Below are positions 12,244-53,444 of a DNA stretch of 64,000 bases, one piece after another. Every line of letters begins with the position of its first letter. The stretch's first letter is position 1. Below the pieces are notes generated by a model. That model did not search any database, was not told the DNA's origin, and saw only the letters and a program-made list of their open reading frames with translations. This DNA comes from Bdellovibrio sp. (GTDB lineage Bacteria > Bdellovibrionota > Bdellovibrionia > Bdellovibrionales > Bdellovibrionaceae), in NCBI GenBank assembly GCA_031428275.1, contig JANPPC010000018.1:25196-89195 (forward strand), given 5' to 3'. Both the position numbers and the translations under genes were made by a program.

Positions 12244-12244
12244 T

Positions 12245-31113: not shown

Positions 31114-31500
31114 CTAAAATCCTGAACACGAAAGTTTGAATCTAAGATCTTCAGCAATCCACAAATCCATACTGATGTGGGCTGCAAATTTAAAAGCCTG
31201 CTTTAGATCGTCATAACTAATGGTATTCTCACGAAAAAACATCATGTACCCTCGACGAAAAATAAAACAAGTTAATTTAGATTTCGGATTCGTTGGTATA
31301 TGTAAATGCTTCTTCAGACTATCATCAAGTAATATAAACGGAACACTCTTAAATAAGTCTGACAAATTTTTTAAGTCCTGCAGTAAGCTTTCTGAATAAT
31401 CCGTATTCATTTCAACATAAAAAGAAAAAATAAGTTCTTCACTTTGGCTTAGCTTGCAAAAATCAGTGAGGGTTAAATCTTTAAAAAATAGACTACCCAT
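31114..31500 (-). CDS. Hypothetical protein (possible redox-inactive thioredoxin-like fold)
   Basis: Coupled between the oxygenase and E1 genes; no CxxC. Confidence 0.55.
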   Translation of the reverse strand: MGSLFFKDLTLTDFCKLSQSEELIFSFYVEMNTDYSESLLQDLKNLSDLFKSVPFILLDDSLKKHLHIPTNPKSKLTCFIFRRGYMMFFRENTISYDDLKQAFKFAAHISMDLWIAEDLRFKLSCSGF

Positions 31501-32176
31501 ATGGCGCCACGGGTAAAGGGGCTAACGCCATTTTTTCAAGCTCTTCAACATCAATACACCCATCCATAAAAATAACGCCGCGATAGTGCGGGCACGGATC
31601 GGCACCGTGGCGAAGGCGTGATTCATTAAATAAGTAATAATGATTTTCTGGCTGAATAGCATACTTTGCACCTTCGTGAAAAACATACGAGTTGCCGTTA
31701 TTGCCGGCAATTTCCGAGATGGGTATTTTTAAAGCCAAACAGTTTTGTTTCTGATGGGCGGGTTCTGTAAAATAATCATGAAACTGTTCGGTCTTTAAGA
31801 AATCGCGAAATAAAACGTTATTTTTGTATTCGAGCTTGTCGCAATGCTCACGAAGGCGCTTTCCGGGTTTCTGTACAAATATTTTAATTCGCGTGGGGGT
31901 GTAGAAGGAAAGTACCGGAGCCATAAGTTTTTTTACCAAATCAGTCAAAGGAGTTGCAAAATACTCCCAGGGAAATTCTTGGTTAAGGCGATTATCATAA
32001 GCTTCTAGGTCGGTGTGACTTTTGGTTCCGCGAATAGAATAGCCATACCAGACATCTTGATCCACGCCATTTTTTACAACTTCGTTGATAATTGAAATTT
32101 GGTCTGTGGGATGCACTTCGAAAGGGAGTTTGAAGAGAAGCTTGTTGCGAAGTAAAAGTTCACTTAAGTTTGACAT
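31493..32176 (-). CDS. Fe(II)/2OG AspH-like oxygenase 1
   Basis: TRIKIF...EHCD (HxD)...RHGAD...YRG. Confidence 0.7.
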   Translation of the reverse strand: MSNLSELLLRNKLLFKLPFEVHPTDQISIINEVVKNGVDQDVWYGYSIRGTKSHTDLEAYDNRLNQEFPWEYFATPLTDLVKKLMAPVLSFYTPTRIKIFVQKPGKRLREHCDKLEYKNNVLFRDFLKTEQFHDYFTEPAHQKQNCLALKIPISEIAGNNGNSYVFHEGAKYAIQPENHYYLFNESRLRHGADPCPHYRGVIFMDGCIDVEELEKMALAPLPVAPYG

Positions 32177-32286
32177 CTGAATCAACTATAGCCACTTCTG
32201 TAAAGGTGTTGCAAAGGAGGAGCGCCGCACTAATCAATATAGTTGCCCGAATGGGCGAACTTTGCTTGAATCAGTCAGAGGTAAAA

Positions 32287-33390
32287 ATGAAGTCTAAAAA
32301 GCTGATAGCCGATAATTTTATTAAACTTCATTTAGAAAAGTATGGCCTAAACGGAACCAATACTCAAAAGAATCCGCCAGCAAATTTTCCAGTGTGGTCA
32401 GCTAAAACTTCTGAAAAACAATTAAGCCAGATAACGGGAGTTAAATTTGGCTACAATGGTCAGGTTTTCAATTGGCGAGAAAGCTCAACGTGCATGTTCT
32501 GGGTTGATTACGGAAACGAAAGCGGTGCCTTGCCGACAACTTTTTTATCTGAATGCCTAAAGGCCGTAGATCAAATAGCCAATCGATACAGTACTTTCAG
32601 CATACCTTTTTTAGGTTCAACATTTAGCCAGGTTTTATTATCCATCGTATCTGAAACCCAGCATAATTATCGAATTACAATCCCGGCCTGCTTAGATTGC
32701 CCAGCTTTAAATTTTGAGTCTGAGTTTAATTCTAAAATTAATTTTGATCGCAAATATACGACCCTTGTCGAAACGATTGAGTTTTCTGAAGAAGAGTTTG
32801 TAGCATTTCTTCGCGAGATGACGGCCGAAGTAAGGTGTGCGGACCCGATTGTCGCATTCTCGGCCTTTATTGGAGCGCGATCCCAGTTTGCTCAAGTCTA
32901 CCATTCACCGTGGCCAGAAATACGAGATGAAAATTTTGACATCGTCGGTAACAAGGCAGTTGGTCCAAGTAATTGGAATGTCGTCGATAATGAAAGTCAT
33001 TTTGCAATTGCCCGCTACCTATTGAAAAAAAATAAAGAAGGAATCCACAACTTATTTTATTCTTATCCCAACATTTTTTTTGCTATTTTAAATGAAGCGG
33101 TCTGGAAACAGTGGATTAAGAAAGCCATGGAAGACAGCGATCGCCAATCTAGTTCAGAAAATTTTTTAAACGGAAAGTTTTTAGCTGAGTATTTTCCAAA
33201 TCTTTATGAGCCTACTTCTTGGATCTCGGGAATTAGCCACTTACTAAAGTTTAAGGAAGAGCTTTTGCAACATTATCCTAAAGCAAATGAAGCTTGGCTG
33301 ACACCCCTATACAGATTAATTGAGAAGCGGAAAATTCATTATGATTTTCAGTTGAATCTAAATGAATCAATTTATGGACTCGTACTTTGA
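32287..33390 (+). CDS. Degenerate PP-loop paralogue (loop lost)
   Basis: KFGYNGQVFNWRE...VDYG aligns with the 27471 N-terminus, but FLGSTFSQ replaces FSGGxDSE; start after gaggt SD. Confidence 0.6.
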   Translation: MKSKKLIADNFIKLHLEKYGLNGTNTQKNPPANFPVWSAKTSEKQLSQITGVKFGYNGQVFNWRESSTCMFWVDYGNESGALPTTFLSECLKAVDQIANRYSTFSIPFLGSTFSQVLLSIVSETQHNYRITIPACLDCPALNFESEFNSKINFDRKYTTLVETIEFSEEEFVAFLREMTAEVRCADPIVAFSAFIGARSQFAQVYHSPWPEIRDENFDIVGNKAVGPSNWNVVDNESHFAIARYLLKKNKEGIHNLFYSYPNIFFAILNEAVWKQWIKKAMEDSDRQSSSENFLNGKFLAEYFPNLYEPTSWISGISHLLKFKEELLQHYPKANEAWLTPLYRLIEKRKIHYDFQLNLNESIYGLVL

Positions 33391-33920
33391 ACCCGCTGGC
33401 TGATACGAACTTATCTGTCAAAGTCGAATATAAGATTATTAGTTTTGAAGATTGGCGTAAAGCAGTTATGCCCATGTGGAGTTGGATAAAATTTCACACT
33501 TGGATCCCGATTATAAATAATCCGTACGGCATGATTCAGTACTGTGGTGAAGAAGTGTTTTCACGATTGATTCAATTTCCAATTGCGGCATTCGTTGATG
33601 ATAAACCGGTCGGTTGGTCATTAGTTTATAATGTGTCTGATACGGTGATTCGAGTCCGAGGTGTCTACGTACTTCCCGAGGCTCGAGGTTTGGGAATCGG
33701 AACAGGTCTATATGACTTTGCCTTAAGTTTATGGCCAGAGCCGTGGACTCAGTATATTGGGTATTATGACTCTAAATCTTTAAAACATTTTATGAGAACT
33801 TGGGACTTGAAGCCAATCGCGCAATACTCTTTAAGGCATCGACAAATCCCAGCAACCAAGCAGGCAAGCGAACCTATACAATTAGCTTATCGAAAAATAA
33901 AGTTAACTGAGAAACAATAG
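33387..33920 (+). CDS. GNAT acyltransferase
   Basis: RVRGVYVLPEARGLGIG; TTGA overlap with the upstream gene. Confidence 0.8.
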   Translation: MNPLADTNLSVKVEYKIISFEDWRKAVMPMWSWIKFHTWIPIINNPYGMIQYCGEEVFSRLIQFPIAAFVDDKPVGWSLVYNVSDTVIRVRGVYVLPEARGLGIGTGLYDFALSLWPEPWTQYIGYYDSKSLKHFMRTWDLKPIAQYSLRHRQIPATKQASEPIQLAYRKIKLTEKQ

Positions 33921-34949
33921 TGGCAAAGTGATATCTGCATCTAAATAAGAAAACTTTTTTCGATCAACATTACCCGCTGAAATAAGACACACGGTGAATG
34001 AGTCTGTATCATCAGCATTACATTTTCGAACGGCTGAAATTACGGTTGCGGCCGAGGGTTCTATTCGAAAGCCCGAATGATATTTGGTAAGTGACATGGC
34101 CTCGAGTATTTCATTTTCAGAAACGGTAATAACCTGGTCTACGTTTGAAAGAAGAATTTCTTTATATTCTTTTCTGACCATGGGTGATCGTAAAGAGTCT
34201 GCAATGGTTGAATTGCAATCCATAGAATCTATATTCTTGTTGTAATAAAGTTGAAAAAAGTCACTTGCCATTTCGGGCTCAACGCCGACGATCGAAACGT
34301 CGTTGCCCATCAAAGACTTCAAAGCAACGCTACAGCCAGTTAACAATGCGCCCGAACCAATCGGACAAACAAAGCGCAGCCGTGTTTTGTTCTGAACTTT
34401 CATAAACTCTTGAAGTTGGCCAAAAACTTCAAGTCCAATTGTACCTTTAGCCGCAACCTCGTGACTGCGATCCGCTAGAAAAAATGGTAATTTGCCCTCT
34501 GTCGCGGCGATTCCCTCGACAACCTGGTAGCGCTCTTCTTCACGCAATCCTTTTTGAATAATTTTAATATTTGGCAAGTTGTAATCCTTTAAACTTTGAA
34601 TTTTTTCGCAAACGGCATCTTCTGGAATTACGATCGTCACATTAATATTTTTGTTAAACGATTGAATAGCATACAAAAAACCCCACGCTAAATTGCCGGG
34701 AGTCGTAAAAACAAGTCCGCGCTTAAAATGTTCGTCAGAAAGTCTAGAAAATATTCCTAAAGCGGCGCGAACTGTAAAGCTATTAGTTACCTGAAGGTCT
34801 TCACGCTTTAATAATACATTTCCAGTGTTGCCTTTTGAAAGCCAAGAACACGTTTGCAGCGGAGTCAAATTTAGATACGGCGCAAGTGTTTGCGAAAATT
34901 GTACAATGTCCTGAAGAGTGACTGAAACATTTTCATTTGAAAACTTCAT
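33903..34949 (-). CDS. Threonine/serine dehydratase-like PLP fold-II protein lacking the Schiff-base lysine
   Basis: LKREDLQ.T.SF(T)VR, PGN, PIGSGAL, VGVEP, EPSAA and SAGNVD; the SFK lysine is Thr59. Confidence 0.75.
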   Translation of the reverse strand: MKFSNENVSVTLQDIVQFSQTLAPYLNLTPLQTCSWLSKGNTGNVLLKREDLQVTNSFTVRAALGIFSRLSDEHFKRGLVFTTPGNLAWGFLYAIQSFNKNINVTIVIPEDAVCEKIQSLKDYNLPNIKIIQKGLREEERYQVVEGIAATEGKLPFFLADRSHEVAAKGTIGLEVFGQLQEFMKVQNKTRLRFVCPIGSGALLTGCSVALKSLMGNDVSIVGVEPEMASDFFQLYYNKNIDSMDCNSTIADSLRSPMVRKEYKEILLSNVDQVITVSENEILEAMSLTKYHSGFRIEPSAATVISAVRKCNADDTDSFTVCLISAGNVDRKKFSYLDADITLPLLFLS

Positions 34950-35516
34950 CTAAAGGTCAGCCCTTTTTTCTAGTTTATTGATAGCGATTTCAAGCTTGCT
35001 GAGTGGCATTTTAAAAATTGAAACGGAGTTGTTGCCTGATTTTAAGTAGCCTTGCCAAGGACGGTCATTGGTAATAAATTCATATCCAAGATTCTTTAAG
35101 AAATCTATTCTTTTAGAATTTCCGATCGCGGTACCAAAAATAGCTGTCGCTTGTTTGGGGTTGGCCTTGATGTGTCTGTAGGCCGCTAAACGCAAATTCA
35201 TATTAAGACTTTGATTTTTTTCTATAACTTTTGTAGCGGCCCTTGTTAAGCAGAAGCAAGGTAACTCAGAAAACTCGTGGGTGGCCGGAAATTGTAAAAG
35301 TAAATCAAACCCTTCGGGTCGAATATGATAAGTTAACCTTAAAAGTGAAATGAGCTCGCCGCTTCTTAATGCCCCGAAGTGGATTCCGTTAGCATCATTT
35401 TGGTCCCACTCAAGGCCCCTCGTATCGACATTACTTCCATACTTTGACGAAAAAGCATTTTTTCGAAGTTCTACGATTTGATCTTTAAATTCTGCATTTA
35501 AGATTTGTATAACCAA
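34950..35516 (-). CDS. GNAT-fold N-acyltransferase (LuxI/FeeM/ElaA-like)
   Basis: LRKNAF...LEWDQND...HFGA...ISLLRL...TRAA pattern. Confidence 0.6.
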   Translation of the reverse strand: MVIQILNAEFKDQIVELRKNAFSSKYGSNVDTRGLEWDQNDANGIHFGALRSGELISLLRLTYHIRPEGFDLLLQFPATHEFSELPCFCLTRAATKVIEKNQSLNMNLRLAAYRHIKANPKQATAIFGTAIGNSKRIDFLKNLGYEFITNDRPWQGYLKSGNNSVSIFKMPLSKLEIAINKLEKRADL

Positions 35517-35521
35517 AGTGA

Positions 35522-36193
35522 TTACCGCCCAGCAGATGGTTTAGGGTTTTGGCCGCCAACAATATTTTGATCTTTTGCCGTAAACTTATTAAACTGCGTC
35601 TTTTGTTTTAAATCAAAAAAATCGCAGATGAAGTGCACTCTTTCTTTATCTCCTTCATTGATTACCCTGTGAATCATATTGATTTTGAGTAGGTAGGCTG
35701 ACCCATCGGCCGCTAAGTGCCGCTTTTCTTGAGCGTATTCGAAAAAGCAGCTCTTATTAGTGATGATTGGAATATGAAGTCGCACTCCATAAAGCCATTC
35801 TGGATAGTCACGATGAAATGGAAGCGAGCATCCTGCTTTAAGGACTGTATATCGAGCTCGACATGGGAAGTAGTCCTCGGTACTTAAAAAATCGATAACC
35901 TTCTTAATTTCACCCGTACAGAGTTCAGTTGGAGTGCGGTAGTATTGGGGGCCTTTAAAATTCAATTTCAGATTATTTTCTCTGACTTCGGCGATCGTTT
36001 TAGCTTCGACACTTGACGGAGGGAGCTCTTGTACCCAACCATCCGAATAAGATGCAGTAGATGCAGTAACGCTCCACCCGCCAAAGTGCTTTCCCATCAT
36101 GACCGGTGGCAAAGTCCGGGTTGACGCAATAAATTCTTTGCAAAGCTGCTGGTGATCGAAAGGAATATGTATTTTCTCAAAATATTCAGACAT
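35522..36193 (-). CDS. Fe(II)/2OG AspH-like oxygenase 2
   Basis: FGGWSV, RARY, PFHRD, RLHIPI and HRVIN...ERVH. Confidence 0.8.
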   Translation of the reverse strand: MSEYFEKIHIPFDHQQLCKEFIASTRTLPPVMMGKHFGGWSVTASTASYSDGWVQELPPSSVEAKTIAEVRENNLKLNFKGPQYYRTPTELCTGEIKKVIDFLSTEDYFPCRARYTVLKAGCSLPFHRDYPEWLYGVRLHIPIITNKSCFFEYAQEKRHLAADGSAYLLKINMIHRVINEGDKERVHFICDFFDLKQKTQFNKFTAKDQNIVGGQNPKPSAGR

Positions 36194-36294
36194 GAATGTC
36201 TAATTCCCCCGATTAATAATGGTAGATTACTAAATTCTTAAAATTCTGCAAAAACTATCTTTCAATTTTTGGCTTGTTCATATATTTTAATTAA

Positions 36295-36966
36295 ATGGAC
36301 TCCCGAATAGAACTAGTAAATCAGCAAAGACTTATACTTTATCTTCAGCCATTTTTGTATGGTGACTTTATGCCTCTTAAGTTTAAAGTCGATTTGCCCA
36401 CATTTGAAACCCAAGTTAGCAAATTTGATTCGAACTGGGTTATTTATAATAAGCATCGCGGCGATACAGGCCGCTTAGGGTTAAGCCTTACTTCGTTAGA
36501 CGGCGGAATGACCGGAGATCCTGACTTGCAAAGTCTTTATCAGCACGCGAAAGAAACGGGCAAAAGTTATTCAGAAAATGATTTTTGTAACCGGACTGAT
36601 GCTTATCGCGGATTAACTTGCTTACACGAGTTATTAAATGCTTTTGAAGGTGGCTTGGGCAGATGCCGCATAGTAAAATTTAGTGCCGGTGGATTTTTTC
36701 CTCCACACCGAGATCAATCTATAAAATTTCAAGTTCCAGATTATTTCAGAATTTTTGTTCCCCTTCAAAACGCCAACCCAGAAAATTTCTATTTTATTTA
36801 CGAGCATAAAAAAATTCAATTTGAGCCGGGACGGGCATATCTATTTAATGCGTTGAAGACGCACAGCGTTTTTTCGTTCGTGAATAATGCATATACTTTA
36901 GCATTGAGTTTAAAACTTAACTCAACCAATATAATGTGCGCTATTAATAGTTTAGCAACGAAATAA
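36295..36966 (+). CDS. Fe(II)/2OG AspH-like oxygenase 3
   Basis: GLSLTS, GRCR, PPHRD and NALKTHSV. Confidence 0.75.
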   Translation: MDSRIELVNQQRLILYLQPFLYGDFMPLKFKVDLPTFETQVSKFDSNWVIYNKHRGDTGRLGLSLTSLDGGMTGDPDLQSLYQHAKETGKSYSENDFCNRTDAYRGLTCLHELLNAFEGGLGRCRIVKFSAGGFFPPHRDQSIKFQVPDYFRIFVPLQNANPENFYFIYEHKKIQFEPGRAYLFNALKTHSVFSFVNNAYTLALSLKLNSTNIMCAINSLATK

Positions 36967-36976
36967 TAGGAACAAT

Positions 36977-37603
36977 ATGATTTCTGAAAAATGGATAACT
37001 AAATTTGATATTCAAAAACTACAGAAACAACTTTATAATGAAGTTTTAGCTAAAGAGATCACTCGACAATCGGCGGCCTTTGGCGGCTGGTCAGTTTTGT
37101 CGGGAAATGGCGATTACCAAGATGGCTGGCAGAGGGGACATATTTTGTTGAATCCCAGCGCTAGTCAGGAAGATAAGCGCCGAATCAAAGATTCTATACC
37201 AAAAAAATTTAGTGAGTATACCGTTGAGACAGAAATTTGTTCAGGCTACTTAAAAGAAGTAATAGACTACGTTCGCCAGGCGCAACTGCAGCCATATCGA
37301 GCCAGAATTATTTGTCTGACCGCCGGACTCGCTTCTACTTGGCATCGAGATACGCCCAGTAAACACTATGCCGTTCGCTTGCATATTCCAATTGTGACTA
37401 ATCCTGAATGCTTTTTTGAAACTAAAACCGAGAAAGAACATTTTCCTGCAGATGGTTCAGCTTATTTTGTCTATGTAAACCGTGAGCACCGAGTTTACAA
37501 CGCTGGAGCTTCAGATCGATATCATCTTGTAATCGATGTGAATGACGAAACTAATGTTTCGAAGTATCATCGGAAAAAAGAATTTGTGCCAAAAGAAGAT
37601 TAG
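36977..37603 (+). CDS. Fe(II)/2OG AspH-like oxygenase 4
   Basis: FGGWSV, RARI, TWHRD, RLHIPI and EHRVYN...DRYH. Confidence 0.8.
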   Translation: MISEKWITKFDIQKLQKQLYNEVLAKEITRQSAAFGGWSVLSGNGDYQDGWQRGHILLNPSASQEDKRRIKDSIPKKFSEYTVETEICSGYLKEVIDYVRQAQLQPYRARIICLTAGLASTWHRDTPSKHYAVRLHIPIVTNPECFFETKTEKEHFPADGSAYFVYVNREHRVYNAGASDRYHLVIDVNDETNVSKYHRKKEFVPKED

Positions 37604-38100
37604 TCATGATTTATTTAAAAATCGCATTAAGCATAATTTCTCAAGACAACGAACTGAATATTCTTTAGTGCTGGCATCGTAAACTTCGACTGGTCGCGGA
37701 ATAAAATCATCTACTTTTTTGAAGCCAAACTTTTCGTAGTAGCTAATCATCGCCTCAGTACAGAACAGAATAAATTCTGGCTTTTTTTCGTAAGTTAAAA
37801 TAAGTTTTGAAATCATTTGCTGGCCATAGCCTAAGTTTCTTTTATCTTTTCTGATAATAATGCCCCGAATGCGAATACATTTTTGCGAATTAAAACAGGC
37901 GGCGATCCAACCAACTTGTTCTTGATCCACTACTAAAGCCCATGCTTTTAAATTTTTATCGCATATATCTATTCCCATCAGCTGAATAGAATAAAATAGA
38001 TTGCTGTGCAGGGTTGGTTTGTCACCAAAGCGAGCGGCTTCAGATACCGAGTAGTGTTCAAGCCACAATGGCGGAGAAACCTCAATTAGTTGAGCCAAAC
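37604..38100 (-). CDS. GNAT acyltransferase (start uncertain, near 38100)
   Basis: RIRGIIIRKDKRNLGYG and YYEKFGF; overlaps the stop of the 38082 gene. Confidence 0.7.
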
Positions 38101-38951
38101 GTAGCCTCCAAACTATTAAATTCAGGCTGAGAAATACCAAGGTATTTCCGAAAAAACCCAGCCAACGGAAATGCGGCCTGTTGAAATTTTTCATTGAGTG
38201 GCTTGGTCGATTGAAAGTCTTGCGCAGTCCCGATAAAAGCGTAGTGAAGTGGAATACTGGCGTTGCCAAGTTCACGCCACATTAGACGCTCGATTCCGTC
38301 ATTATGCGGGTGAAGAAACGTTTTTTTATTAAAAGTTGAAGTCAAGCCAGTGAAATAAGATTTAAATACTTGCGGGCTTACCTTTAAAATATTTTCGACG
38401 GCCAAAATATTATAGTGATTTAAAGCAACTCCAACTTGATGGATACGCTCATTTTCAAGGTAAACCCAATAAGGAGGCCCATATTCGCGGTTAAGTGATC
38501 TTGTAAATGACGCGTTTAGCACACGTAGGTAACCCTGTGGCCATAATACAGGTTGATTGATAGATCGCGAGGCTTGAATATATTGAAGTGTGGCGCGATC
38601 ACTGATTCCAAAAAGTGCCTCACATTCAAGGACTGTTTTTTGATCCCATCTTTTAAAATCACTTAAAACTAAAATATTTACGGCATGAATATTCTGCGTG
38701 ATTTGTTTTAATGCTGAAGCAACCACCGAACCGTCATCAAGAATGGTGATCGGTCCGAAAGCTTCTACAAGTCGAATGATAGCTTGTTGCAAAGCGTTTT
38801 CCAGGGGCATGTCGGTAATTCTAGCTAGATTATCTAACTCAAAAAAGTAAAGATCTTCTTGTTTTTCGGCTTTCACCCAAGATATCTTATCATATCCACT
38901 TTGATAAAATGGCTCTGTGGCTAGAAAGAAACTTGGTGAAAATTTTTTCAT
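38082..38951 (-). CDS. Probable highly degenerate PP-loop paralogue
   Basis: ITILDDGSVVAS sits at the position of IHILFSGGVDSE, and ILKVSPQVFKSYF resembles FFQYTPELIYSYL; homology is inferred by eye. Confidence 0.5.
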   Translation of the reverse strand: MKKFSPSFFLATEPFYQSGYDKISWVKAEKQEDLYFFELDNLARITDMPLENALQQAIIRLVEAFGPITILDDGSVVASALKQITQNIHAVNILVLSDFKRWDQKTVLECEALFGISDRATLQYIQASRSINQPVLWPQGYLRVLNASFTRSLNREYGPPYWVYLENERIHQVGVALNHYNILAVENILKVSPQVFKSYFTGLTSTFNKKTFLHPHNDGIERLMWRELGNASIPLHYAFIGTAQDFQSTKPLNEKFQQAAFPLAGFFRKYLGISQPEFNSLEATFGSTN

Positions 38952-40864: not shown

Positions 40865-41304
40865 ACTATTTCGCGAAATTTTTTTTAATTATGCTGGTTG
40901 TGACTGTCGTTTTTAACCTTGAGTATTTTCCATTTTCAAATTACGCAATGTACTCGAGGCCGCTTCTACCTGGCCCAACTTACACCTACTGGAAACTGCG
41001 CACTGTCGATCAAAATGGCATTGAACAAGACTTCAAAAACAAAAATTATTACTTATTTCATGCTGAGCAACCTTTGATTGAATCTTTACATCGCAATCAG
41101 TTCGCTCAAAAAGATTTGCAAGTAGTACTAATGTCTCTTTTAAAAAGAACTCGATATATGAATGCAAACTTTGTTGAGATACGTCTATATAAGGCCATAT
41201 ATCTTTGGCCAGAATACAAAGCGGCAATGTTGTTAGATTTACCAATTGAAGTGAAAGACTATGTTAGGCTAGAACTGTTGACTACGAGCGGGACGATAAA
41301 ATGA
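40861..41304 (+). CDS. HTTM-partner-like membrane-anchored protein
   Basis: N-terminal TM then FPFSNYAMYS, a motif type seen in HTTM-associated proteins. Confidence 0.5.
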   Translation: MNYFAKFFLIMLVVTVVFNLEYFPFSNYAMYSRPLLPGPTYTYWKLRTVDQNGIEQDFKNKNYYLFHAEQPLIESLHRNQFAQKDLQVVLMSLLKRTRYMNANFVEIRLYKAIYLWPEYKAAMLLDLPIEVKDYVRLELLTTSGTIK

Positions 41305-42134: not shown

Positions 42135-42140
42135 TTATTT

Positions 42141-42899: not shown

Positions 42900-42913
42900 A
42901 ATTTTTTTATGGA

Positions 42914-43648: not shown

Positions 43649-43753
43649 TTAGCTTAATACTAATTCATACTTTGGAAAAAAAGTAAGTTTAAAAATGAAT
43701 TTTAGCTTTATAAGTTAAACGGGCATGTATAGAGGTCTTGGATTTATGATAGT

Positions 43754-45381: not shown

Positions 45382-45382
45382 G

Positions 45383-46222
45383 CTAAGGATATAAATCTTC
45401 TTGGCTTTCTAAATTGGCCACCAAATGTAATCGCGGCGCGGCGCCTTTATTTGCCACATAATGCGTGTAGCCCGTATTAACATACCACATTTTACCGTCG
45501 GCCGGCATATGCGCAGTCGTCACTTTTGTGCCATCCGTTATGTAATTAAAAGTCGAATCCAAATTTGTAAAAATAGGTATGTGCACTCGAATAGAATAAT
45601 CTGTGTTGTAATCAATGTGAGGCTTGCCCTCGAAGCCGGGCATCAATACGGCAAGCCTGACGCGGGTAAATTTAGCCTTGAATGAGTTCAATATTTCTAG
45701 AAGCATGCCTTTGGCGTTGTCTCCAGGAACATTATAATTTCGCTCATCGAGTTGAGGCTTGTATTCGATCGAGTCTCTCTCTATTGCGCATCGAATCGCT
45801 TTTCTTTTGTCAGTTATAGGATCTAAAAAATTAATATTCGGATATTTTTTTGAGTCAAATTTTGTAATAGCTAGTTGCCGATACATTCGTCCATTATGAA
45901 GACCGCGTGCTCGTAAGGACTCTTCGTCACTAATAAAGCGGGTATGAGTCTCATTGTACTGGTTGCAAAGATGTACATACTCACCGCCAAAATCTAAATC
46001 TGAATATAGAGAATAATTATCGAAGCCGAATTTAATAATTTCTTTCTGAAGAGCAACAATATCAAGGGCCGGTCGAGGCAAGACTTTAAACAAGGGAAGA
46101 TGCTCTCGTGTTAATTTCATCGATAATTTTGATTCTGCAGAATCTAACATTGTTGCCCCCTTAGCTACATTAGTTTTAACGGGGAAGACTGAAGCGTCAA
46201 TAAAAACTATATTCTGGTTCAC
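45383..46222 (-). CDS. Fe(II)/2OG AspH-like oxygenase 6
   Basis: TRVRL, KPHID, RVHIPI and THYVAN...PRLH. Confidence 0.8.
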   Translation of the reverse strand: MNQNIVFIDASVFPVKTNVAKGATMLDSAESKLSMKLTREHLPLFKVLPRPALDIVALQKEIIKFGFDNYSLYSDLDFGGEYVHLCNQYNETHTRFISDEESLRARGLHNGRMYRQLAITKFDSKKYPNINFLDPITDKRKAIRCAIERDSIEYKPQLDERNYNVPGDNAKGMLLEILNSFKAKFTRVRLAVLMPGFEGKPHIDYNTDYSIRVHIPIFTNLDSTFNYITDGTKVTTAHMPADGKMWYVNTGYTHYVANKGAAPRLHLVANLESQEDLYP

Positions 46223-46286
46223 AAGACCTTCGTCAAAATATGTCGTGAACGAAGATTCAAGGCAAAAATTAATATATAATTATTGT

Positions 46287-47189
46287 ATGGAAGTATTATG
46301 GCTGGTCTCGCTATTAACACCGATAACTTATGCGATATCGGTTATAGAAGCGGGAATATTATCGTATTTTTTAAAGAAATCTTATGACTGGCATGCAGCT
46401 TGTGCAAACTGGGCTTGTGGGCTTGGCAAAACAATTGTCTACCTGTTTCCATATTCTATCCACGTGCCGATTTTTAGATATGTATGGGATAATCGAATTT
46501 TTGACTTATCAATTACGTCCGAGGTTAATTTAAAGAATACTTGTCTTGTAATTGCATTACTAGTGGGACAAGATTTCTGCTATTACTGGAGCCATCGTGT
46601 TTCCCACCATGTTCGTTGGTTTTGGGCAAATCATGTTGTCCATCATTCGTCAGCGCAGCTAAACTTGAGTGCGGCTTTTAGAAACGGATGGTTTACAAAG
46701 TATAACGGGACCTATTTATTTCTAATTCCTTTGATTTGGCTTGGTTTTTCGCCTTGGTTAGTATTATTTGCACTGTTTTTGAATGTCTACCAATTCATTA
46801 TTCATAATACATGGACTCCGCGACTAGGTTGGCTTGAGTATGTATTTAACACGCCCTCTTCTCACCGCGTGCATCATGCTAAAAATTCAGAATATATTAA
46901 TGCTAATTTCGGCGGCATATTTATTGTTTTCGATATTATGTTTGGAACCTATGTAGCAGAAAAAAAAGAAATTCCATGCCAATATGGGGTAGAAAATCGC
47001 GAAACGGATTACAATCCGATAAATATCGAATTGATAGAGTGGAAACATTTCTACAGGGATTTAAAAAGCTCAAAAAATTTAGGCGAAGCTTTAAATTACC
47101 TAATCAAAGCCCCTGACTGGATGCCCGCCCGATATTTAAATCCAAAGATAGGACCTGACAAGAAGTTAGAGACTGAAAAAGTTAGTTAA
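46287..47189 (+). CDS. Sterol desaturase / fatty-acid hydroxylase family (AGMO-like)
   Basis: HRVSH, HVVHHSS, FIIHN, HRVHH and NFGGIF. Confidence 0.88.
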   Translation: MEVLWLVSLLTPITYAISVIEAGILSYFLKKSYDWHAACANWACGLGKTIVYLFPYSIHVPIFRYVWDNRIFDLSITSEVNLKNTCLVIALLVGQDFCYYWSHRVSHHVRWFWANHVVHHSSAQLNLSAAFRNGWFTKYNGTYLFLIPLIWLGFSPWLVLFALFLNVYQFIIHNTWTPRLGWLEYVFNTPSSHRVHHAKNSEYINANFGGIFIVFDIMFGTYVAEKKEIPCQYGVENRETDYNPINIELIEWKHFYRDLKSSKNLGEALNYLIKAPDWMPARYLNPKIGPDKKLETEKVS

Positions 47190-47836
47190 ATAGGTAACTT
47201 AAAAAGTGGATTTACCTGACTCCAAGCTTTGAACTCTTTAAAGCTGATCCCGAAATTAATAACTAAATGAACTCGCTCAACTTTTTCTGAAAAATTAAAA
47301 AAAGCATGTGGGACAGTTGAATCAATAGCAAAACATTTTCCAACGGGCATGTGCACTTTCTCGACCAGCTTATTTCCTGAATAAAAACAAAAAACATTTT
47401 TTTCATCTGTTACAATAGGCCAATGTACTCGGGTTACATTCTCTGAGAAATCATCAATGTGCCTTGGGACACTACTTCTAGGCTGCATTTTGGAAAACCG
47501 AGCTCGCAGGGGCTTAAGACTCAACGAATTAAAAATTTCTTCCATGTAATGCGTAACATTTTTATTCCATACAGAAATTGACTGCCAGTCATATTCGGAT
47601 AGTTTTTTTTCGAAAGTGCCTACTGACTGAAGTACATTTACGGAATCATTTTCATGATCTTCGTTTTTAGACCTCGAAGTTAAACCAATTCCTGAATAGC
47701 CACCGAAATTTTCGCCATATTCAGAGTAGTCTACCCATTTTTTTTCATCTAAATAGGTCAGAGCTCGATCAACATTTAGGTTGAATGTATCGGGAAGCTG
47801 CGTCCAGTATTGTGGTGAATTAAATTGGGATTTAAT
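47186..47836 (-). CDS. Fe(II)/2OG AspH-like oxygenase 7, probable ATT start
   Basis: Frame is open 97 codons upstream of the tracked ATG. AAGAGGAG SD lies 6 nt before ATT at 47836. Carries FGGYSGIGLTS, PRHID and PHAF...ERVH. Confidence 0.75.
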   Translation of the reverse strand: MKSQFNSPQYWTQLPDTFNLNVDRALTYLDEKKWVDYSEYGENFGGYSGIGLTSRSKNEDHENDSVNVLQSVGTFEKKLSEYDWQSISVWNKNVTHYMEEIFNSLSLKPLRARFSKMQPRSSVPRHIDDFSENVTRVHWPIVTDEKNVFCFYSGNKLVEKVHMPVGKCFAIDSTVPHAFFNFSEKVERVHLVINFGISFKEFKAWSQVNPLFKLPI

Positions 47837-48000
47837 ATTGGGCTCCTCTTGCTAGATTGTGGCAAAGTGGGTATGCCGGATCAAGGTCTAAATTTGGTAC
47901 ACTGAATAAGGTAAAGCGTTAAAGCCGTGAAATTTTATTCAAAATGGTTATACTAGGGTATGAGCTTTAAGAAAGTATCGCTAATTATCAAGGCCTATAA

Positions 48001-48444
48001 ATGAAGCGTAGAAGTTTAATTAAGCTATCATTTTCACTAAGTATATTAAGTTTTTTAGGACTTTATTCAAACTCTGAATATTCCAGCGGCGGCAAATTGG
48101 AAGTCATCTTCAAATTACCCGAAGGAATGTCATTTAAAGAATATGAGCAAACTGTTCCGAGATGGGTCAATTTTAGCAAATTCAAAAGCGTTTTGTCTAA
48201 ATACTATTACCAAGGAACTTTGCTTAGGACTCAGAAAATTTACGACGACTCAAGAACGCTAAGAACTGTTTACCACTTTACGAATGAAAAAACAGCTCTC
48301 CAGTTCTGTGAAGAATCGATGAAGTCGTGTAATTATAACTTTGCGGCTCGAGATAGCTTAGGAATTCAAACAAAAACATACATTAACGGAAAAAGAAAAG
48401 AATTTACTACAGCGCGAGGCCTGGGCCTTACAGTAAAGGGCTAA
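48001..48444 (+). CDS. Hypothetical protein with twin-arginine-like signal
   Basis: MKRRSLIKLSFSLSILSFLG. Confidence 0.6.
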   Translation: MKRRSLIKLSFSLSILSFLGLYSNSEYSSGGKLEVIFKLPEGMSFKEYEQTVPRWVNFSKFKSVLSKYYYQGTLLRTQKIYDDSRTLRTVYHFTNEKTALQFCEESMKSCNYNFAARDSLGIQTKTYINGKRKEFTTARGLGLTVKG

Positions 48445-48487
48445 AAAGCATTCGAAATTATAAATTCTTCTAAAGCGATGGTACAAA

Positions 48488-49153
48488 TTGAACCTTCCTC
48501 AAATCAGAAAACTTTCTGAAACTGACTTAGACCAAATAGTCAAAATTAATCTGCAACATTCAAAAGTGATGGGTCTGCTAAAAAATAGTAATTACGACCA
48601 AAACTTTTTTGATAATATTCTTTTATTTTTTAATAGTTCTCAACGGTATATTCTTGGTGCTTTTGAAGAAGAAAAATTAGTTTCGTTTATTTGTGTTATT
48701 CATTGGAACACTCTACCGTACTGGACATTTGTGAATGCCAAAGCCATTCCATTCTTGAGAGGAAATACTTTTCAACCAAGCATGAACGGAATTGCACCAC
48801 TGATATCAAAAGTTTTAACTGATGAACTTCAAAATAATAGATTTATTTATTGGTTTTTAACTTCTCAAAAACGCATTAAAGGCCACCGAAATTATTGGAG
48901 TCGATTTGTTCCTGAACTCGAAAAATTTTATTTCATATCTAGAGTCATTAAAAAAGATTATCGCCCACGATCTGACTTTGTCTGGGACCTAATGGGGAAG
49001 CAAGTCTGGAGCAAGGACTTGGTCATTCGGATCGGTGTTGAAAAATCTCATTTCGAATTATTGGCTCCATATGAAGAACTATTTGCCATTATTAACAAAC
49101 CAAATGCGAACTTAAGCGAACTGAATGATACAGAAGCCATTTTAGAGTGCTGA
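48488..49153 (+). CDS. GNAT-like hypothetical protein
   Basis: IRKLSETDLDQIVKI...ILGAFEEEKLVSFI resembles a GNAT N-terminus. Confidence 0.5.
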   Translation: MNLPQIRKLSETDLDQIVKINLQHSKVMGLLKNSNYDQNFFDNILLFFNSSQRYILGAFEEEKLVSFICVIHWNTLPYWTFVNAKAIPFLRGNTFQPSMNGIAPLISKVLTDELQNNRFIYWFLTSQKRIKGHRNYWSRFVPELEKFYFISRVIKKDYRPRSDFVWDLMGKQVWSKDLVIRIGVEKSHFELLAPYEELFAIINKPNANLSELNDTEAILEC

Positions 49154-49190
49154 AAAAAAATGACAATTTACGCATTAGCCAGAAAATATT

Positions 49191-49425
49191 TCATAAAGAT
49201 CTACTAAGCTTGAATCTAAGCATCCTAATAAAATCTTCGTGAAGACCCCGCGCGTTTAAAGTTGCCATCAGTAAAGTAAGTCGATGAGAGGGAGTAACGA
49301 TCTTCACTTTTAGAAATATCAAACCCGTTTGATCTGCTAAATCCGAAAACTTGATGTGTTTTTGAATATTGATCAAAAAGAAATTTACCGAAGCCGCAGG
49401 AATGACCCGTCAATGAAATTTGCAT
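49191..49425 (-). pseudogene. Short-chain dehydrogenase (SDR) remnant
   Basis: TGHSCGFG Rossmann motif and GFSRSNGFDI, then homology is lost within about 45 aa. Confidence 0.7.
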
Positions 49426-49555
49426 GATTAAATGATAGTATGCTTAATTAAAAATAAAAAGTTCTATTTTTTGAAATTTCAATGATGAGAAAATCGCATA
49501 CAGAATTGTCGATTGCGTCTTGTCGTAACCGTTCTGGCGTTTCTATAATACCATT

Positions 49556-50077
49556 ATGAAAACTCATTTTTACATCAGAATGTTGCTGCTTTTACCGATC
49601 TTTGTGAATGTATTAGCGTGCCAAACTAAGCCGCCTGCTCAAGAAGAAATTGCTTTACCTTTTGTACTGAAGTCCCAATTTGAAAACCTACTTCAAAATC
49701 AAAATATCCGGTGGAGATCATACTCGACCGATAACCAGGTTGAGGCCGATAAGCTTTTTGTTTCTTTATTGAAAACTATCAATAATTCGACTACGCCAAC
49801 GGTAGATCCATACTCGGGTCGACAGCAAGTGCCATCTTTTTGCCAAGGCTCCAATTTACCCAGTATAATAGAGGCCAAATCCGAAACAGAGCGATCCGCC
49901 ACATTTAGTTTGTATGCTATGCCTAACTTTTTTTTAGGTTGTCTTGGCACAGAACGCCTCAAAGCGCAGGCACTAATTCTTTACTGCAAAAAAAGCGGAA
50001 TTGTTTTTTCAATTCTGACTTTGCTTCCGGGTAAGAATACGACCTGGCCGAATGAGGCCGTGGGGCATTGCAAATAG
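49556..50077 (+). CDS. Lipoprotein, hypothetical
   Basis: Lipobox VLAC; three further Cys in the mature part plus a C-terminal Cys. Confidence 0.65.
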   Translation: MKTHFYIRMLLLLPIFVNVLACQTKPPAQEEIALPFVLKSQFENLLQNQNIRWRSYSTDNQVEADKLFVSLLKTINNSTTPTVDPYSGRQQVPSFCQGSNLPSIIEAKSETERSATFSLYAMPNFFLGCLGTERLKAQALILYCKKSGIVFSILTLLPGKNTTWPNEAVGHCK

Positions 50078-50108
50078 CGTAATCTGCCGCTAGGCTGTTG
50101 TGTAAAAC

Positions 50109-51005
50109 ATGGGGTTATGTAAGATGAACAGCTGTTTAAAGAAGTTTGTTATTCTCGCTTTTATAAGTTTTTTCTCGGTAAACACCGTAGCCGATCAGAC
50201 AATGAACGAATTAAAACTGTCGCAGTTCGGGGATTTCGTAACCAATTGGAAGCTTGTTACAGTTCGTTATCGAAAAGATTCTGAAGAAATGCGATTTACA
50301 TACTCGAACGATTTAGCTTGGAATGCCTTATCAAAAAATTTATCGGTTTATCCTGACGGAGCTATTTTTGCGAAGGTCAGCTTTGTTTCAGTCGAAGACC
50401 CCTTATTTCCTAGCTCTGCAGTACCTGCCGGTGCTCGGCGTATTCAGTTTATGGTTCGCGACGAAGAAAAATATAAATCTACCAACGGTTGGGGTTATGC
50501 GTTGTTTGATTCCGAAGGCAATACCTACCCTGGCGATATGAAAGCCGCGACCATGGGCTGCGCAGTCTGCCACGACGTTGCAAAAGAGCGTGGTTATGTT
50601 TTTTCACAAATTATGGGACAGCCACTATCTAAAGATGTGTTCGCAAGCTCTTGGCGAACCCAAAATAAGTTTGTCGACTTTAAAGTTAAAAGTTTGCCCT
50701 TATCTATACAACAGTCGCTTCCGCGCGCAGATAAGAAAGTTCGTAAACTTGAGGGGCCGCTAGCCGACTATATTTTCTTTGGAACGCTTGATGAAATTAA
50801 GCCTCTTCTTGCGAAAGAGGCTATCGAATCAAAAATGACAACACTACTTTTAAGCAAAGATAATAAATCCTATTCGCTAGTTACATTTGATACCACTTCG
50901 AGATGCGAAAAAGACGAGGTGGCTTTAATTGGAAAACACTCAATTAACTCTGCCAAAGTAAGTTACTTAGAGACACGTTTTTGTGCGAAAGCAAAGAATC
51001 CGTGA
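50109..51005 (+). CDS. Cytochrome P460-like c-type cytochrome with extra C-terminal domain
   Basis: YPDGAIFAK, QFMVRD, GWGYALF and CAVCH...GYVFS. Confidence 0.75.
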   Translation: MGLCKMNSCLKKFVILAFISFFSVNTVADQTMNELKLSQFGDFVTNWKLVTVRYRKDSEEMRFTYSNDLAWNALSKNLSVYPDGAIFAKVSFVSVEDPLFPSSAVPAGARRIQFMVRDEEKYKSTNGWGYALFDSEGNTYPGDMKAATMGCAVCHDVAKERGYVFSQIMGQPLSKDVFASSWRTQNKFVDFKVKSLPLSIQQSLPRADKKVRKLEGPLADYIFFGTLDEIKPLLAKEAIESKMTTLLLSKDNKSYSLVTFDTTSRCEKDEVALIGKHSINSAKVSYLETRFCAKAKNP

Positions 51006-52102
51006 AATGGTTTTTACTTTTCTTTAGCATTTCGTCATTGATTGGTATTTTATCAAGTTGTTCTAGTTTTAGATCGGGCCCATTTGCGGCTTCAAAAGGC
51101 GAAGATTTTTTTTCGTATAATTGCAAAATAGTTAATAAATCAGGAAAACTGATTCGACTCTTCAAGGGCGACGTGTGTGACTATTTTAATGACGGCCATG
51201 TAATCGTAGCAAGTCAGAAGAATCTTTCTTTGGTATCTCCTTCCGGGGGAGTTCTTTGGACCAAAAACATAAACTGTCACCATATGGTTCGTGGTACAGA
51301 TATCGATCAATTTATTGTTCTAAATTCGTCTTTTAATACATGGGACAGAACATTTTTGCGCTTCGACAGAGTCAGTATTTTTAACTTGAAAGGCGACGAA
51401 ATAAATTATTTCGATTTTTTTGAGAGCCGGGATCAGCTCTTACCTCTGATCAAAAATTCACTTAAATACTTAGATCGCGCAACTTATAAAACTTTGCAGC
51501 AGCCCGGAGATTTTTTGAATGTCGAGCGATCTGAAAAATTTCGACCTGTTTTTTATGAGTTTTCCCACGCAAACTCAGTGTATAAAATTTCTGCTAATCG
51601 TCTTTCAAAAAAAAATCCGGCATTCGCTGAAGGAAATTATATTGTTAATGCCGCCGGAATTAATTTGGTTTTTATCCTTGATAAGAATTTAAAAAAAGTC
51701 TTGTGGTCTTTAGAATCGGTCAGCGATTTTATTCACGACGTGCAGGTAACTCCAGAAGGAGAATTACTTTACTTTAATAACACGTTTGATTCTAGCTACT
51801 CTTCAATCGAACTACTAGATCCGATATCACTTAGACGAACGATTCTATTCAACGGAAATGCCGAAAATAAATTTAGGGCAGAATCTCAAGGAAGTGTACA
51901 GCGCTTGCCAAACGGCAATTATTTAGTTTCAAAATTTGATCCCCGCGAATCGCAAGTCCTAGTTATTGGAGAAAAAGGGCAAATAATAGCCACGCGATAC
52001 CCAAAAAGTATGGGCTCGACCGGTTACAATCTTGACGGGCTCCAAGAGGTTAAAAAGCTAGATTTAGAACTTTTCTTAAAAAATAACAAACCTCTTTTTT
52101 AA
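51002..52102 (+). CDS. Arylsulfotransferase (ASST)-like beta-propeller lipoprotein
   Basis: GTGA-coupled start, lipobox LSSC, CHH, SHANSV, IHDVQ and GSVQRLPNGNYL. Confidence 0.65.
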   Translation: MKWFLLFFSISSLIGILSSCSSFRSGPFAASKGEDFFSYNCKIVNKSGKLIRLFKGDVCDYFNDGHVIVASQKNLSLVSPSGGVLWTKNINCHHMVRGTDIDQFIVLNSSFNTWDRTFLRFDRVSIFNLKGDEINYFDFFESRDQLLPLIKNSLKYLDRATYKTLQQPGDFLNVERSEKFRPVFYEFSHANSVYKISANRLSKKNPAFAEGNYIVNAAGINLVFILDKNLKKVLWSLESVSDFIHDVQVTPEGELLYFNNTFDSSYSSIELLDPISLRRTILFNGNAENKFRAESQGSVQRLPNGNYLVSKFDPRESQVLVIGEKGQIIATRYPKSMGSTGYNLDGLQEVKKLDLELFLKNNKPLF

Positions 52103-52126
52103 TCACTAAAGGTTACAGAAATAATT

Positions 52127-52921
52127 ATGAAAAATTTGAAGTACGAAGCAACCAAATTGATCGGTGTAAATGGGAAAGCATTCGTGAATATGGATCCGTT
52201 TTTAAAGACGGCAGATTTTGTAGCTCTCGAATCGGAAGCGAACGTCGGATTTGCAAAAAGTAGAAACTTCACGCATGCGTACATTTTGGGTGAGACCTGT
52301 CCGTGGGAAAAAGATCGCTTTCCTCAACCCCTCGAAGCTGAAATTTTCGCGGATATCGATCATTACGATCCGTCTGGAAAACATCGGACTCTTATGCAGG
52401 GTATGAAAGCCCAAGAAAAACGAAGGTATGTGTACTTTGCTCTCAAGGCGCACAGCCCATGGTATGCAACTTTGTATCTAAGGCACGAGCATTTTCGGGC
52501 TAAAACAGAGTCCAACTTAAATAACGATTGGGCACCAGACGCCGCTCATTTTCCGCTTCTAGTTAATTATATTGAAAGTCTGCAAGAATCGCTTTTTGAA
52601 AGTATCGGACGCGTTTTATTTTTTATTAGTTACCCCGGGGTTGCAACAATTTGTCATCGTGATTTTTTTGTGGAAGATCACCGCGATCACAGTATTAACA
52701 TATACTTAAAAGAATCAAGAAAGGCATATGTTTGGGACGGGCTCAAGAATAATAAAATCTATCTCGATCCCGGAATCAGAAGCTATTTTTTTAATAATCG
52801 AGATTTTCATGGCGTCGATGCAGAATCTTATTTTAATTATACTTTAAGAATTGATGGCCAATTTAAACAGACGGTTCTCGATCAAATAGGCATACCCTCT
52901 GGTATTTTAAATATCAGTTAG
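52127..52921 (+). CDS. Fe(II)/2OG-like cupin oxygenase 8
   Basis: IGRVLFF, CHRD and FNNRDFHGVD. Confidence 0.6.
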   Translation: MKNLKYEATKLIGVNGKAFVNMDPFLKTADFVALESEANVGFAKSRNFTHAYILGETCPWEKDRFPQPLEAEIFADIDHYDPSGKHRTLMQGMKAQEKRRYVYFALKAHSPWYATLYLRHEHFRAKTESNLNNDWAPDAAHFPLLVNYIESLQESLFESIGRVLFFISYPGVATICHRDFFVEDHRDHSINIYLKESRKAYVWDGLKNNKIYLDPGIRSYFFNNRDFHGVDAESYFNYTLRIDGQFKQTVLDQIGIPSGILNIS

Positions 52922-53444
52922 CTGAGGTCGAAAACACTAGATGAGTTCGCTCAAAGGTTCTATTAGCATTTATCGGCGTGTGAAAATGATTCGTACGCAA
53001 AGTGTACAAGGTTCCTTCTTTCAACATCCTATACACGATGTCATCCACGACGAAGAAACAGGCTCGATTTGTATAGATAGGAATGTGAAAACGAATTTCT
53101 TCGGTATCTTTATGATAAGAAAGGCAAGTTTTTGGCCTTAGGGTCATAAACCGAATACGCCCGATCGATAAATTGAACTGCTCTAAAGCGATCTGTTTGA
53201 CGTTTGAAATAACGTCAAACATGGGGTTATTAGCCCCTTCAACTAGTTCTGAAAAATCAGCTTCCGTGAAAAGCAACTTATGTGGGTTTTTTGGATCAAT
53301 AGCTGAACCACAGCCATCTGTGTACAAAGGTTGGTTTGGTCTTGTAGTTAAAGAAACCTGTGACCCGCTGCCAAGTTGTTTAATCGACTCAAAGTAAGTG
53401 CGAATTTTATTTACATCAAATTGAAAATTAAGCTCTTGAATCAT
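52914..53444 (-). CDS. Fe(II)/2OG AspH-like oxygenase 9
   Basis: GRIRFM, SYHKD, RFHIPI and FHTPIN...ERTH. Confidence 0.8.
   Translation of the reverse strand: MIQELNFQFDVNKIRTYFESIKQLGSGSQVSLTTRPNQPLYTDGCGSAIDPKNPHKLLFTEADFSELVEGANNPMFDVISNVKQIALEQFNLSIGRIRFMTLRPKTCLSYHKDTEEIRFHIPIYTNRACFFVVDDIVYRMLKEGTLYTLRTNHFHTPINANRTFERTHLVFSTSAN

Follow-up and report, generated by a model that had tools for sequence, protein, structure and literature searches.

We examined a 64,000-nucleotide stretch of DNA (hereafter, the window; positions 25,196 to 89,195 of contig JANPPC010000018.1) from Bdellovibrio sp. assembly GCA_031428275.1, a metagenome-assembled genome (MAG) of 3.0 Mb, in which an initial annotation, made from the sequence alone, had noticed nine genes for apparent Fe(II)/2-oxoglutarate (2OG) oxygenases within one locus. 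This locus is an accessory island of a predatory Pseudobdellovibrio (Bdellovibrionota) genome, and all nine open reading frames (ORFs), designated A to I in the order of their positions, are intact and lie where the annotation had placed them (Table 1). Genomes, contigs and loci used for comparison carry numbers preceded by G, C and L, respectively, whereas single letters always denote the oxygenases.

Table 1. Oxygenase genes and other features of the island, with coordinates given as positions in the window
Feature	Coordinates	Strand	Motifs and residues	Basis or remark
Accessory island (~26.4 kb) carrying all nine oxygenase genes	27335..53748	both		S13 peptidase/lon boundaries
A, unannotated family	31493..32185	-	H114/D116/H193/R202	likely start 32176 (M4); distal His placed by eye
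B, PF05118	35522..36193	-	FGGWS; H127/D129/H175/R185 (ERVH Arg)	PF05118 44.4 bits
C, divergent PF05118 clade	36295..36966	+	H138/D140/H190, no Arg	PF05118 13.2 bits
D, PF05118	36977..37603	+	FGGWS; H123/D125/H171/R181 (DRYH Arg)	PF05118 33.6 bits
E, DUF6445-like	43754..44587	+	H123/D125/H248/R264	likely start 43799 or 43817
F, PF05118	45383..46222	-	H202/D204/H254/R264 (PRLH Arg)	PF05118 35.8 bits
G, PF05118	47186..47836	-	FGGYS and GIGLTS; H126/D128/H177/R188	PF05118 41.2 bits
H, unannotated family	52127..52921	+	H177/D179/H228/R241	invariant triad and fold matches
I, short PF05118 member (176 aa)	52914..53444	-	H111/D113/H155/R166 (ERTH Arg)	PF05118 32.8 bits
Short SCD-like (delta-9-type) membrane desaturase, divergent from E	42914..43648	-		PF00487; SCD1 homolog
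Short desaturase, translationally coupled to E	44584..45381	+		PF00487
Third short desaturase, N-terminal fragment (remnant)	28479..28820	+		PF00487 positions 2-82 only
Di-iron FA_hydroxylase-family membrane enzyme, between F and G	46245..47189	+		PF04116 98.6 bits
Two PP-loop paralogs	38917..40864	+		weak PP-loop/QueC-type Pfam matches
Third PP-loop copy	27471-28388			weak PP-loop/QueC-type Pfam matches
Pyridoxal phosphate (PLP)-fold protein	33903-34949	-		in operon with B
Exported protein, within the island	42141-42899			after the HTTM pair

Each of the nine proteins contains the HxD...H iron-binding triad, and the triad residues are invariant within the alignment of each family, so that these are not chance HxD strings. 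An arginine follows 9-16 residues past the distal histidine in eight of the nine, with C as the exception. The triad and the arginine are as the initial annotation had described them, and so are the two sequence motifs that it had pointed out, FGG(W/Y)S in B, D and G and GxxLTS in C and G. The Fe(II)/2OG class assigned by the annotation also stood, by sequence or by fold, but the nine genes are not one diversified family: they fall into four families, namely, six PF05118-type genes, one DUF6445-like gene and two unannotated families. The assignment, by fold or by family, to the non-heme iron oxygenases with a double-stranded beta-helix (DSBH), to which the Fe/2OG enzymes belong, holds for eight of the nine proteins. 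No membrane segment was detected in any of them (highest 19-residue Kyte-Doolittle mean at most 1.15, with no value above 1.6).

The gathering cut-off of PF05118 (Asp_Arg_Hydrox), 22.6 bits, was passed by five proteins (B, D, F, G and I); C scored below it, and A, E and H produced no match. In the island paralogs, the match covers only positions ~60-155 of the 157 in the profile. When compared with PDB, a profile of the six PF05118-type paralogs retrieved Cpz10 (7v4f; 1.6e-17), L-proline cis-4-hydroxylase (4p7w; 3e-10) and proline 3-hydroxylase (1e5r; 4.8e-4), with which it aligned in the order RxR, HxD, RxH, H, RxH, and Cpz10 was also the best PDB match of B. In Cpz10, the iron triad is H115/D117/H160, and R170, ten residues past the distal histidine, contacts 2OG; both Fe and 2OG are lost in the R170A mutant, and H123 and H172 form a histidine pair that is present in proline hydroxylase, too (PMC9814697). 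The arginines of B, D, F, G and I align with R170, and these five proteins keep all the catalytic positions of Cpz10, including the equivalents of H123 and H172, both of which are missing in C. AspH was absent from the PDB sequence matches of the six-paralog profile at E-values up to 1, and the LpxO equivalog model of NCBIfam, which has a cut-off of 500 bits, matched B at 23.7 bits and none of the other eight proteins. Thus, among the families proposed for comparison in the initial annotation, proline hydroxylases, together with Cpz10, are the nearest, whereas AspH is not close, and the LpxO model is far out of reach.

A and H had no Pfam or NCBIfam match. We found 9 relatives of A and 31 relatives of H, none of them annotated, and the HxD..H..R signature is invariant in all relatives of A, as are the triad and the arginine in all relatives of H. 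AlphaFold2 (AF2) models built on the family alignments reached pLDDT values of 87 for A and 90 for H, and Foldseek searches of PDB with these models returned Fe/2OG enzymes only, with a probability of 1.0. These matches included prolyl hydroxylases, L-proline cis-4-hydroxylase, Cpz10, PHD2, AlkB and AspH; for H, they were PHD2, L-proline cis-4-hydroxylase and similar enzymes, and, for A, AspH was a remote match (TM 0.41). In hhalign comparisons with the PF05118 paralogs, A aligned with a probability of 87% and H with 53%. When compared with BFVD, the H model matched viral 'Asp/Asn/Pro hydroxylases' and cyanophage 2OG oxygenases. Several cyanophage proteins in BFVD that fold-match H are named 'DNA endonuclease V', and phrog_274, a weak match of E, bears the same label, which suggests that 2OG oxygenases were misannotated under this name in the past.

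The placement of E in the superfamily appears less secure than that of the other members, coming from a near-threshold match to a domain of unknown function and from conserved residues. E scores 23.3 bits against DUF6445 (PF20043), for which the gathering cut-off is 24, and all 11 of its close relatives match DUF6445 (best, 3.2e-7). All 32 sequences compared from this rare family, which counts only 47 representatives among 1.84 billion, retain H123, D125 and H248 at identities of 18-49%. The E profile yielded only weak matches in PDB (E ~0.3), all of them to prolyl 4-hydroxylases (P4H) or Fe/2OG enzymes, and hhalign detected nothing between the E family and either the PF05118 or the H family.

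C is connected by blastp to G, F and D and belongs to a clade with 100/100 support within the tree of the PF05118-type proteins. The initial annotation had noted that most of the oxygenases have the 2OG-binding arginine and that C appears to lack it, and this absence recurs in the relatives of C: all five full-length members of the clade, that is, C and four proteins found in four further genomes, retain HxD and the distal histidine and have lost the 2OG-anchoring arginine along with both RxH histidines. The loss of the arginine is thus a trait of the clade rather than a quirk of one protein, and the members of this clade probably either bind the co-substrate in another mode or are not 2OG enzymes. 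G presents a different peculiarity. Its frame is open for 221 codons, up to position 47836, whereas an ORF listed from ATG comprises only 119 aa and misses the FGGYS motif, which is located in the N-terminal extension upstream of that ATG. In the alignment, an ATT at 47836-47834, with AGGAG 6 nt upstream, stands where the L027 ortholog has its ATG, and G would therefore either initiate at this ATT, a rare start codon, or have suffered damage to its start.

In four congeners (G008, G018, G024 and G012), clpX, the S13 peptidase gene and lon are packed into ~6 kb, and, in G003, clpX and lon are only ~1.7 kb apart, with no S13 match between them; ClpX of G008 is 96% identical to ClpX of this genome. 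Near-identical Lon and ClpX proteins bear names that assign the genome to Pseudobdellovibrio/Bdellovibrio. Given the proximity of clpX and lon in these five congeners, the ~26.4 kb that separate the end of the S13 peptidase gene (27334) from the start of lon (53749) constitute an accessory island. Repeat and tRNA scans of the island ends revealed no att-like repeats, tRNA or integrase, promoter and terminator scans of the locus remained at chance level, PADLOC detected no defense-system match, and PHROGs gave two weak matches, one of which is that of E to phrog_274. The island is a mosaic, and the nine oxygenase genes belong to no fewer than seven transcription units, some on each strand. Related islands with differing gene sets occupy other chromosomal sites in G012, G030, G020, G001 and G013, and seven PF05118-type genes are found on contig C218 of G030. 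In G026, a related island adjoins clpX, so that insertions into the clpX-lon interval have occurred repeatedly. The G026 island (contig C1, ~82-90 kb; L008) is smaller and different, with a truncated C-like gene and two desaturase/H-like pairs, and lon is located ~20 kb from this clpX-side island, on the opposite strand.

The 3.0-Mb genome has five PF05118 matches, all of them in this locus, and six-frame searches of the genome with hidden Markov models (HMMs) of the four families found no copy outside the island. In a sample of 301 genomes from the phylum, 261 have no PF05118 match at all, and the maximum, five, is that of the present genome. On the scale of this genome and this sample, the enrichment of oxygenases in the locus is far beyond chance. 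The closest pair within the window by blastp, B and D, shares 37% identity, and all other pairs share less. Orthologs elsewhere are more similar: 62-63% for G and 68-71% for F (L027 and a JGI contig), 60-64% for D and 63% for C in G012, and 46% for I in G013, where the I ortholog lies beside an H-like gene. Five of the six PF05118-type paralogs are therefore closer to an ortholog from another genome (46-71%) than to any paralog in the window (37% at most). B groups with D-type proteins in the tree, which includes at least seven well-supported clades; a search of the genome contigs with B alone as the query found no related loci. Because the orthologs elsewhere are closer than the paralogs here, the paralogs are old lineages reshuffled among mosaic islands, which bears out the view, expressed in the initial annotation, that their divergence is too great for recent duplicates. 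A literature search found nothing on Bdellovibrio with such hydroxylases, nor on DUF6445.

Genes for short membrane desaturases are recurrent neighbors of the oxygenase genes. The desaturase encoded at 42914-43648 matches SCD1 (PDB 4ymk) at 2.9e-15, with the histidine boxes aligned. The short desaturases of the island comprise 244-265 aa and are accessory, in contrast to a housekeeping desaturase of ~370 aa that is present as one copy in every genome of the genus (here, on contig C13). Of the 12 genes for short desaturases in the loci that were retrieved, 9 lie no more than 85 bp from an oxygenase gene; 8 of the 9 share its strand and usually overlap it, and, depending on the locus, the partner is a PF05118, an H-family or an E-family member. 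In the window, the stop codon of E overlaps the start of the desaturase gene at 44584, and this pair is found also in L027, with 64% identity. More broadly, the block consisting of E, the desaturase, F, G and the genes at 48001 and 48488 is kept in L027 at 41-68% identity, with F likewise following the desaturase. The FA_hydroxylase gene between F and G (46245-47189) is missing from the corresponding L027 block (11565-12995) and was either inserted here or lost there.

Two other associations emerged at the genome level. The PP-loop family, the co-occurrence of which with the oxygenases the initial annotation had proposed to check, is represented in 10 of the 12 PF05118-positive genomes of the genus and in 1 of the 29 negative ones (Fisher 6e-7), and the mean number of desaturase copies per genome is 3.7 in the positive compared to 1.3 in the negative genomes (p = 1e-5). 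G003, a genome of the same genus in one contig of 2,657,893 bp, has seven PP-loop copies, no PF05118 and no clpX-lon island, and thus, the PP-loop family can exist without the oxygenases. Outside the window, the genome carries two pairs of an OlsB-like (PF13444) and a PlsC-like (PF01553) gene (C9:27071-28797 and C43:74701-76232). The OlsB-like gene is core in the genus, being present in 28 of the 31 high-quality genomes, and the two pairs suggest that the organism makes two acyloxyacyl aminolipids.

Taken together, we propose, tentatively and with slightly less than even confidence, that each island oxygenase hydroxylates its own position of a molecule with an acyl chain, for which OlsB/OlsA-type aminolipids of the cell itself are a plausible candidate. 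Each enzyme would bind Fe(II) and 2OG, turn O2 into a ferryl species and hydroxylate one C-H position, and the paralogs would act on different positions of one acyl-chain-bearing molecule that is also modified by the desaturases. The most plausible substrate would be the acyloxyacyl aminolipids produced by the two core OlsB/OlsA-like pairs. An acyl-bearing substrate is favored because of the tight, repeated coupling to desaturases, the presence of an OlsE-type FA_hydroxylase enzyme and the OlsB/PlsC-like pairs. There is a precedent for such a division of labor: OlsC and OlsD, which are LpxO homologues, and OlsE, a member of the FA_hydroxylase superfamily, each add a hydroxyl group at their own position on the same ornithine lipid (PMC12971839). 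By analogy, this precedent would fit the suggestion of the initial annotation that the oxygenases have distinct positional specificities on a shared class of substrate, and it is conserved gene neighborhood, above all the oxygenase-desaturase pairs, that would point to a shared substrate class.

Several observations weigh against this interpretation. The nearest characterized relatives, Cpz10 and proline hydroxylases, act on water-soluble small molecules. The paralogs, devoid of membrane segments, fail every LpxO-specific test, be it the equivalog score, a full-length PF05118 match or a membrane anchor. The Foldseek TM-scores of A and H are modest (0.4-0.6), and E is the weakest member of the set, as indicated above. 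The co-occurrence tests do not correct for phylogeny and so ignore kinship among the genomes. HTTM, YcaO, nitroreductase and radical-SAM genes in related islands point to peptides, and the protein encoded at 34950, proposed to be a FeeM/LuxI-like scaffold enzyme, has no significant Pfam or PDB match. Finally, gene remnants and the ATT start of G indicate some decay in the island. One remnant is the third short desaturase at the left edge of the island, with one stop codon inside the wider PF00487 match; another may be a 66-aa ORF starting MQISLTGHSCGFGKFL on the minus strand (49225-49425), within a 400-bp gap, which by eye resembles the Rossmann-type N-terminus of a short-chain dehydrogenase (SDR).

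A more elaborate form of the proposal is, on balance, doubtful. Under this scenario, a soluble Fe/2OG oxygenase and a short SCD-like desaturase would comprise a dedicated two-gene oxidation module, for which three unrelated families (PF05118, DUF6445-like and H) have been recruited as the partner of the desaturase. Such modules would be shuffled with PP-loop/GNAT modules among predatory Bdellovibrionota, yielding strain-specific, multiply hydroxylated and unsaturated aminolipids or lipopeptides, and the C clade, while still binding iron, would have given up the canonical 2OG anchor.

The remaining genes of the island and its relatives provide the background for alternative explanations. Apart from the features in Table 1, the island encodes several GNATs, an HTTM pair, a fused E1 dehydrogenase, a cytochrome P460 and an ASST-like protein. 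The block consisting of the lipoprotein, P460, ASST and H genes has a rearranged counterpart in L025, where two radical-SAM genes are located near H-like and PF05118 genes. B is the first gene of an operon followed by the 34950-family gene and the PLP-like gene. In L028, a block of a PLP-like, a GNAT and a 406-aa gene is kept, divergent from A, a PP-loop gene, a small ORF of ~125 codons and E1, and the operon A-orf128-E1 of the window is kept as well. Within this part of L028 (8001-12255), the PP-loop gene, of 315 aa and 45% identical to the one at 39917-40864, lies between the A-family gene and the small ORF before E1; the corresponding part of the window (31114-32185) has no such gene. The PLP-fold protein at 33903-34949 has an SFTVRA motif with threonine at the position of the Schiff-base lysine of fold-type II, and an ortholog with 67% identity in a different assembly (L028, 5261-6274) has exactly this motif, so that the Lys-to-Thr substitution is a conserved trait and not an error. 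In L030, a distant A-family locus (30% identity), PF05118, desaturase, FA_hydroxylase, PP-loop and GNAT genes are present, too. L027 (1089-7837) contains YcaO and nitroreductase genes, then a module of PP-loop, small protein and HTTM genes, and then a B12-radical SAM gene, a signature like that of ribosomally synthesized and post-translationally modified peptide (RiPP) clusters, which is absent from the window. Two candidate models were set aside, the first of them being kept as no more than a lead. A FeeM/LuxI-like scaffold enzyme was considered for 34950, but its four-member profile has no Pfam or significant PDB match (EsaI appears only at E = 0.37), and searches of the genome with PF13444 and PF21926 miss this gene. 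A Streptomyces 7-deazapurine cluster with PF05118 is inapplicable as a model because there is no preQ0 core here.

Hydroxylation of peptide or protein side chains, in a RiPP-like pathway or in the maturation of a secreted protein, is an explanation that we regard as unlikely. The PP-loop proteins, HTTM pair and GNATs would act on the same peptide, and the desaturases would either tailor an attached acyl group or be unrelated. AspH, which hydroxylates Asp/Asn residues of proteins, belongs to PF05118 and is also among the fold matches of A, although it is missing from the PDB sequence matches at E-values up to 1, and the island proteins have the HxD triad and neither a TPR domain nor a membrane anchor. 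The gene content is similarly divided: the HTTM pair is followed by an exported protein within the island, the YcaO, nitroreductase, B12-radical SAM, PP-loop and HTTM genes of L027 lie beside the oxygenase-desaturase block, and the two radical-SAM genes of L025 neighbor H-like and PF05118 genes, but neither YcaO nor radical-SAM genes are found in the window itself, and no precursor-like small ORF was seen in its two largest intergenic gaps. Moreover, the tight, repeated coupling to SCD-like acyl desaturases would not be expected for this type of pathway.

There is a similarly small chance that the oxygenases hydroxylate free amino acids or small soluble metabolites in the service of a non-ribosomal product assembled by PP-loop amidoligases, GNATs, the PLP-like protein and an E1 2-oxoacid decarboxylase. 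The closest solved relatives (Cpz10, L-proline cis-4-hydroxylase and proline 3-hydroxylase), the small size and solubility of all nine proteins, and the weak TIGR04531 match of G ('non-proteinogenic amino acid hydroxylase') are in line with this possibility, as is the co-transcription of A with the E1 dehydrogenase gene and of B with that of the PLP-fold protein, in modules that are kept in L028. It leaves unexplained, however, the repeated operonic pairing with membrane desaturases and the FA hydroxylase; the PLP-like protein and its ortholog both lack the Schiff-base lysine, and no nonribosomal peptide synthetase (NRPS), ATP-grasp or typical transporter gene was seen in the island.

It is improbable that the cluster merely reflects unrelated cargo piled up in a clpX-lon recombination hot spot rather than a pathway, as could be imagined from the different, smaller island by clpX in G026, the mosaic organization, the remnants and ATT start, and the presence of island blocks at separate loci in other genomes, given that the same families occur together at other sites and in distant genomes (G012 C11, G030 C218, G001 C58, L027 and L030), that PF05118 presence tracks both the PP-loop family and the desaturase copy number, and that the oxygenase-desaturase pairs usually overlap at stop and start codons.

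If the oxygenases and desaturases do form two-gene modules, they would amount to a combinatorial lipid-tailoring toolkit without a described counterpart. If the proposal of acyl tailoring is right, the island would show that predatory bacteria vary their lipids or lipid-like products by means of a mix-and-match set of twelve O2-dependent iron enzymes. The recurrent oxygenase-desaturase pair would then be defined as a directly testable unit, and the island would provide the first functional handle on DUF6445 and on the two unannotated oxygenase families represented by A and H, while the C clade would represent a natural experiment on a PF05118 enzyme without the 2OG-binding arginine. Should the substrate prove to be a peptide or small molecule instead, the island would still encode an undescribed pathway joining PP-loop ATPases, GNATs and many hydroxylases.

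Cpz10, the caprazamycin beta-hydroxylase (7V4F), and the proline hydroxylases 4P7W and 1E5R are the best sequence matches among solved structures and share with the island proteins the small size, solubility and the motif order RxR...HxD...RxH...H...(9-11 residues)...RxH. However, identity is low, the alignment is limited to the C-terminal ~110 residues, and the N-terminal halves of the island proteins, which contain FGG(W/Y)S and GxxLTS, are unmatched in those enzymes. The context differs as well: nine copies rather than one, in the company of desaturases, an FA hydroxylase, PP-loop proteins and GNATs rather than in a nucleoside or amino-acid pathway. With LpxO, OlsC and OlsD, the island proteins have PF05118 in common, but they lack the inner-membrane anchor of LpxO and remain far below its model. 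LpxO-like genes of ~330 aa from other Bdellovibrionota match PF05118 over positions 2-157, and none of these is present in this genome.

The founding member of PF05118, human aspartyl/asparaginyl beta-hydroxylase (AspH), matches the fold of A remotely, but no TPR domain or membrane anchor is present in the island proteins, and AspH binds iron by two histidines only, in contrast to the HxD found in all nine proteins here. T4-like cyanophages and giant viruses also encode numerous 2OG oxygenase paralogs that are small and divergent, a similarity that extends to the fold matches of the H model and to the weak match of E to phrog_274. Unlike these viral sets, with no further PHROG match, the oxygenases of the island are found in a cellular context and are coupled to desaturases and PP-loop genes.

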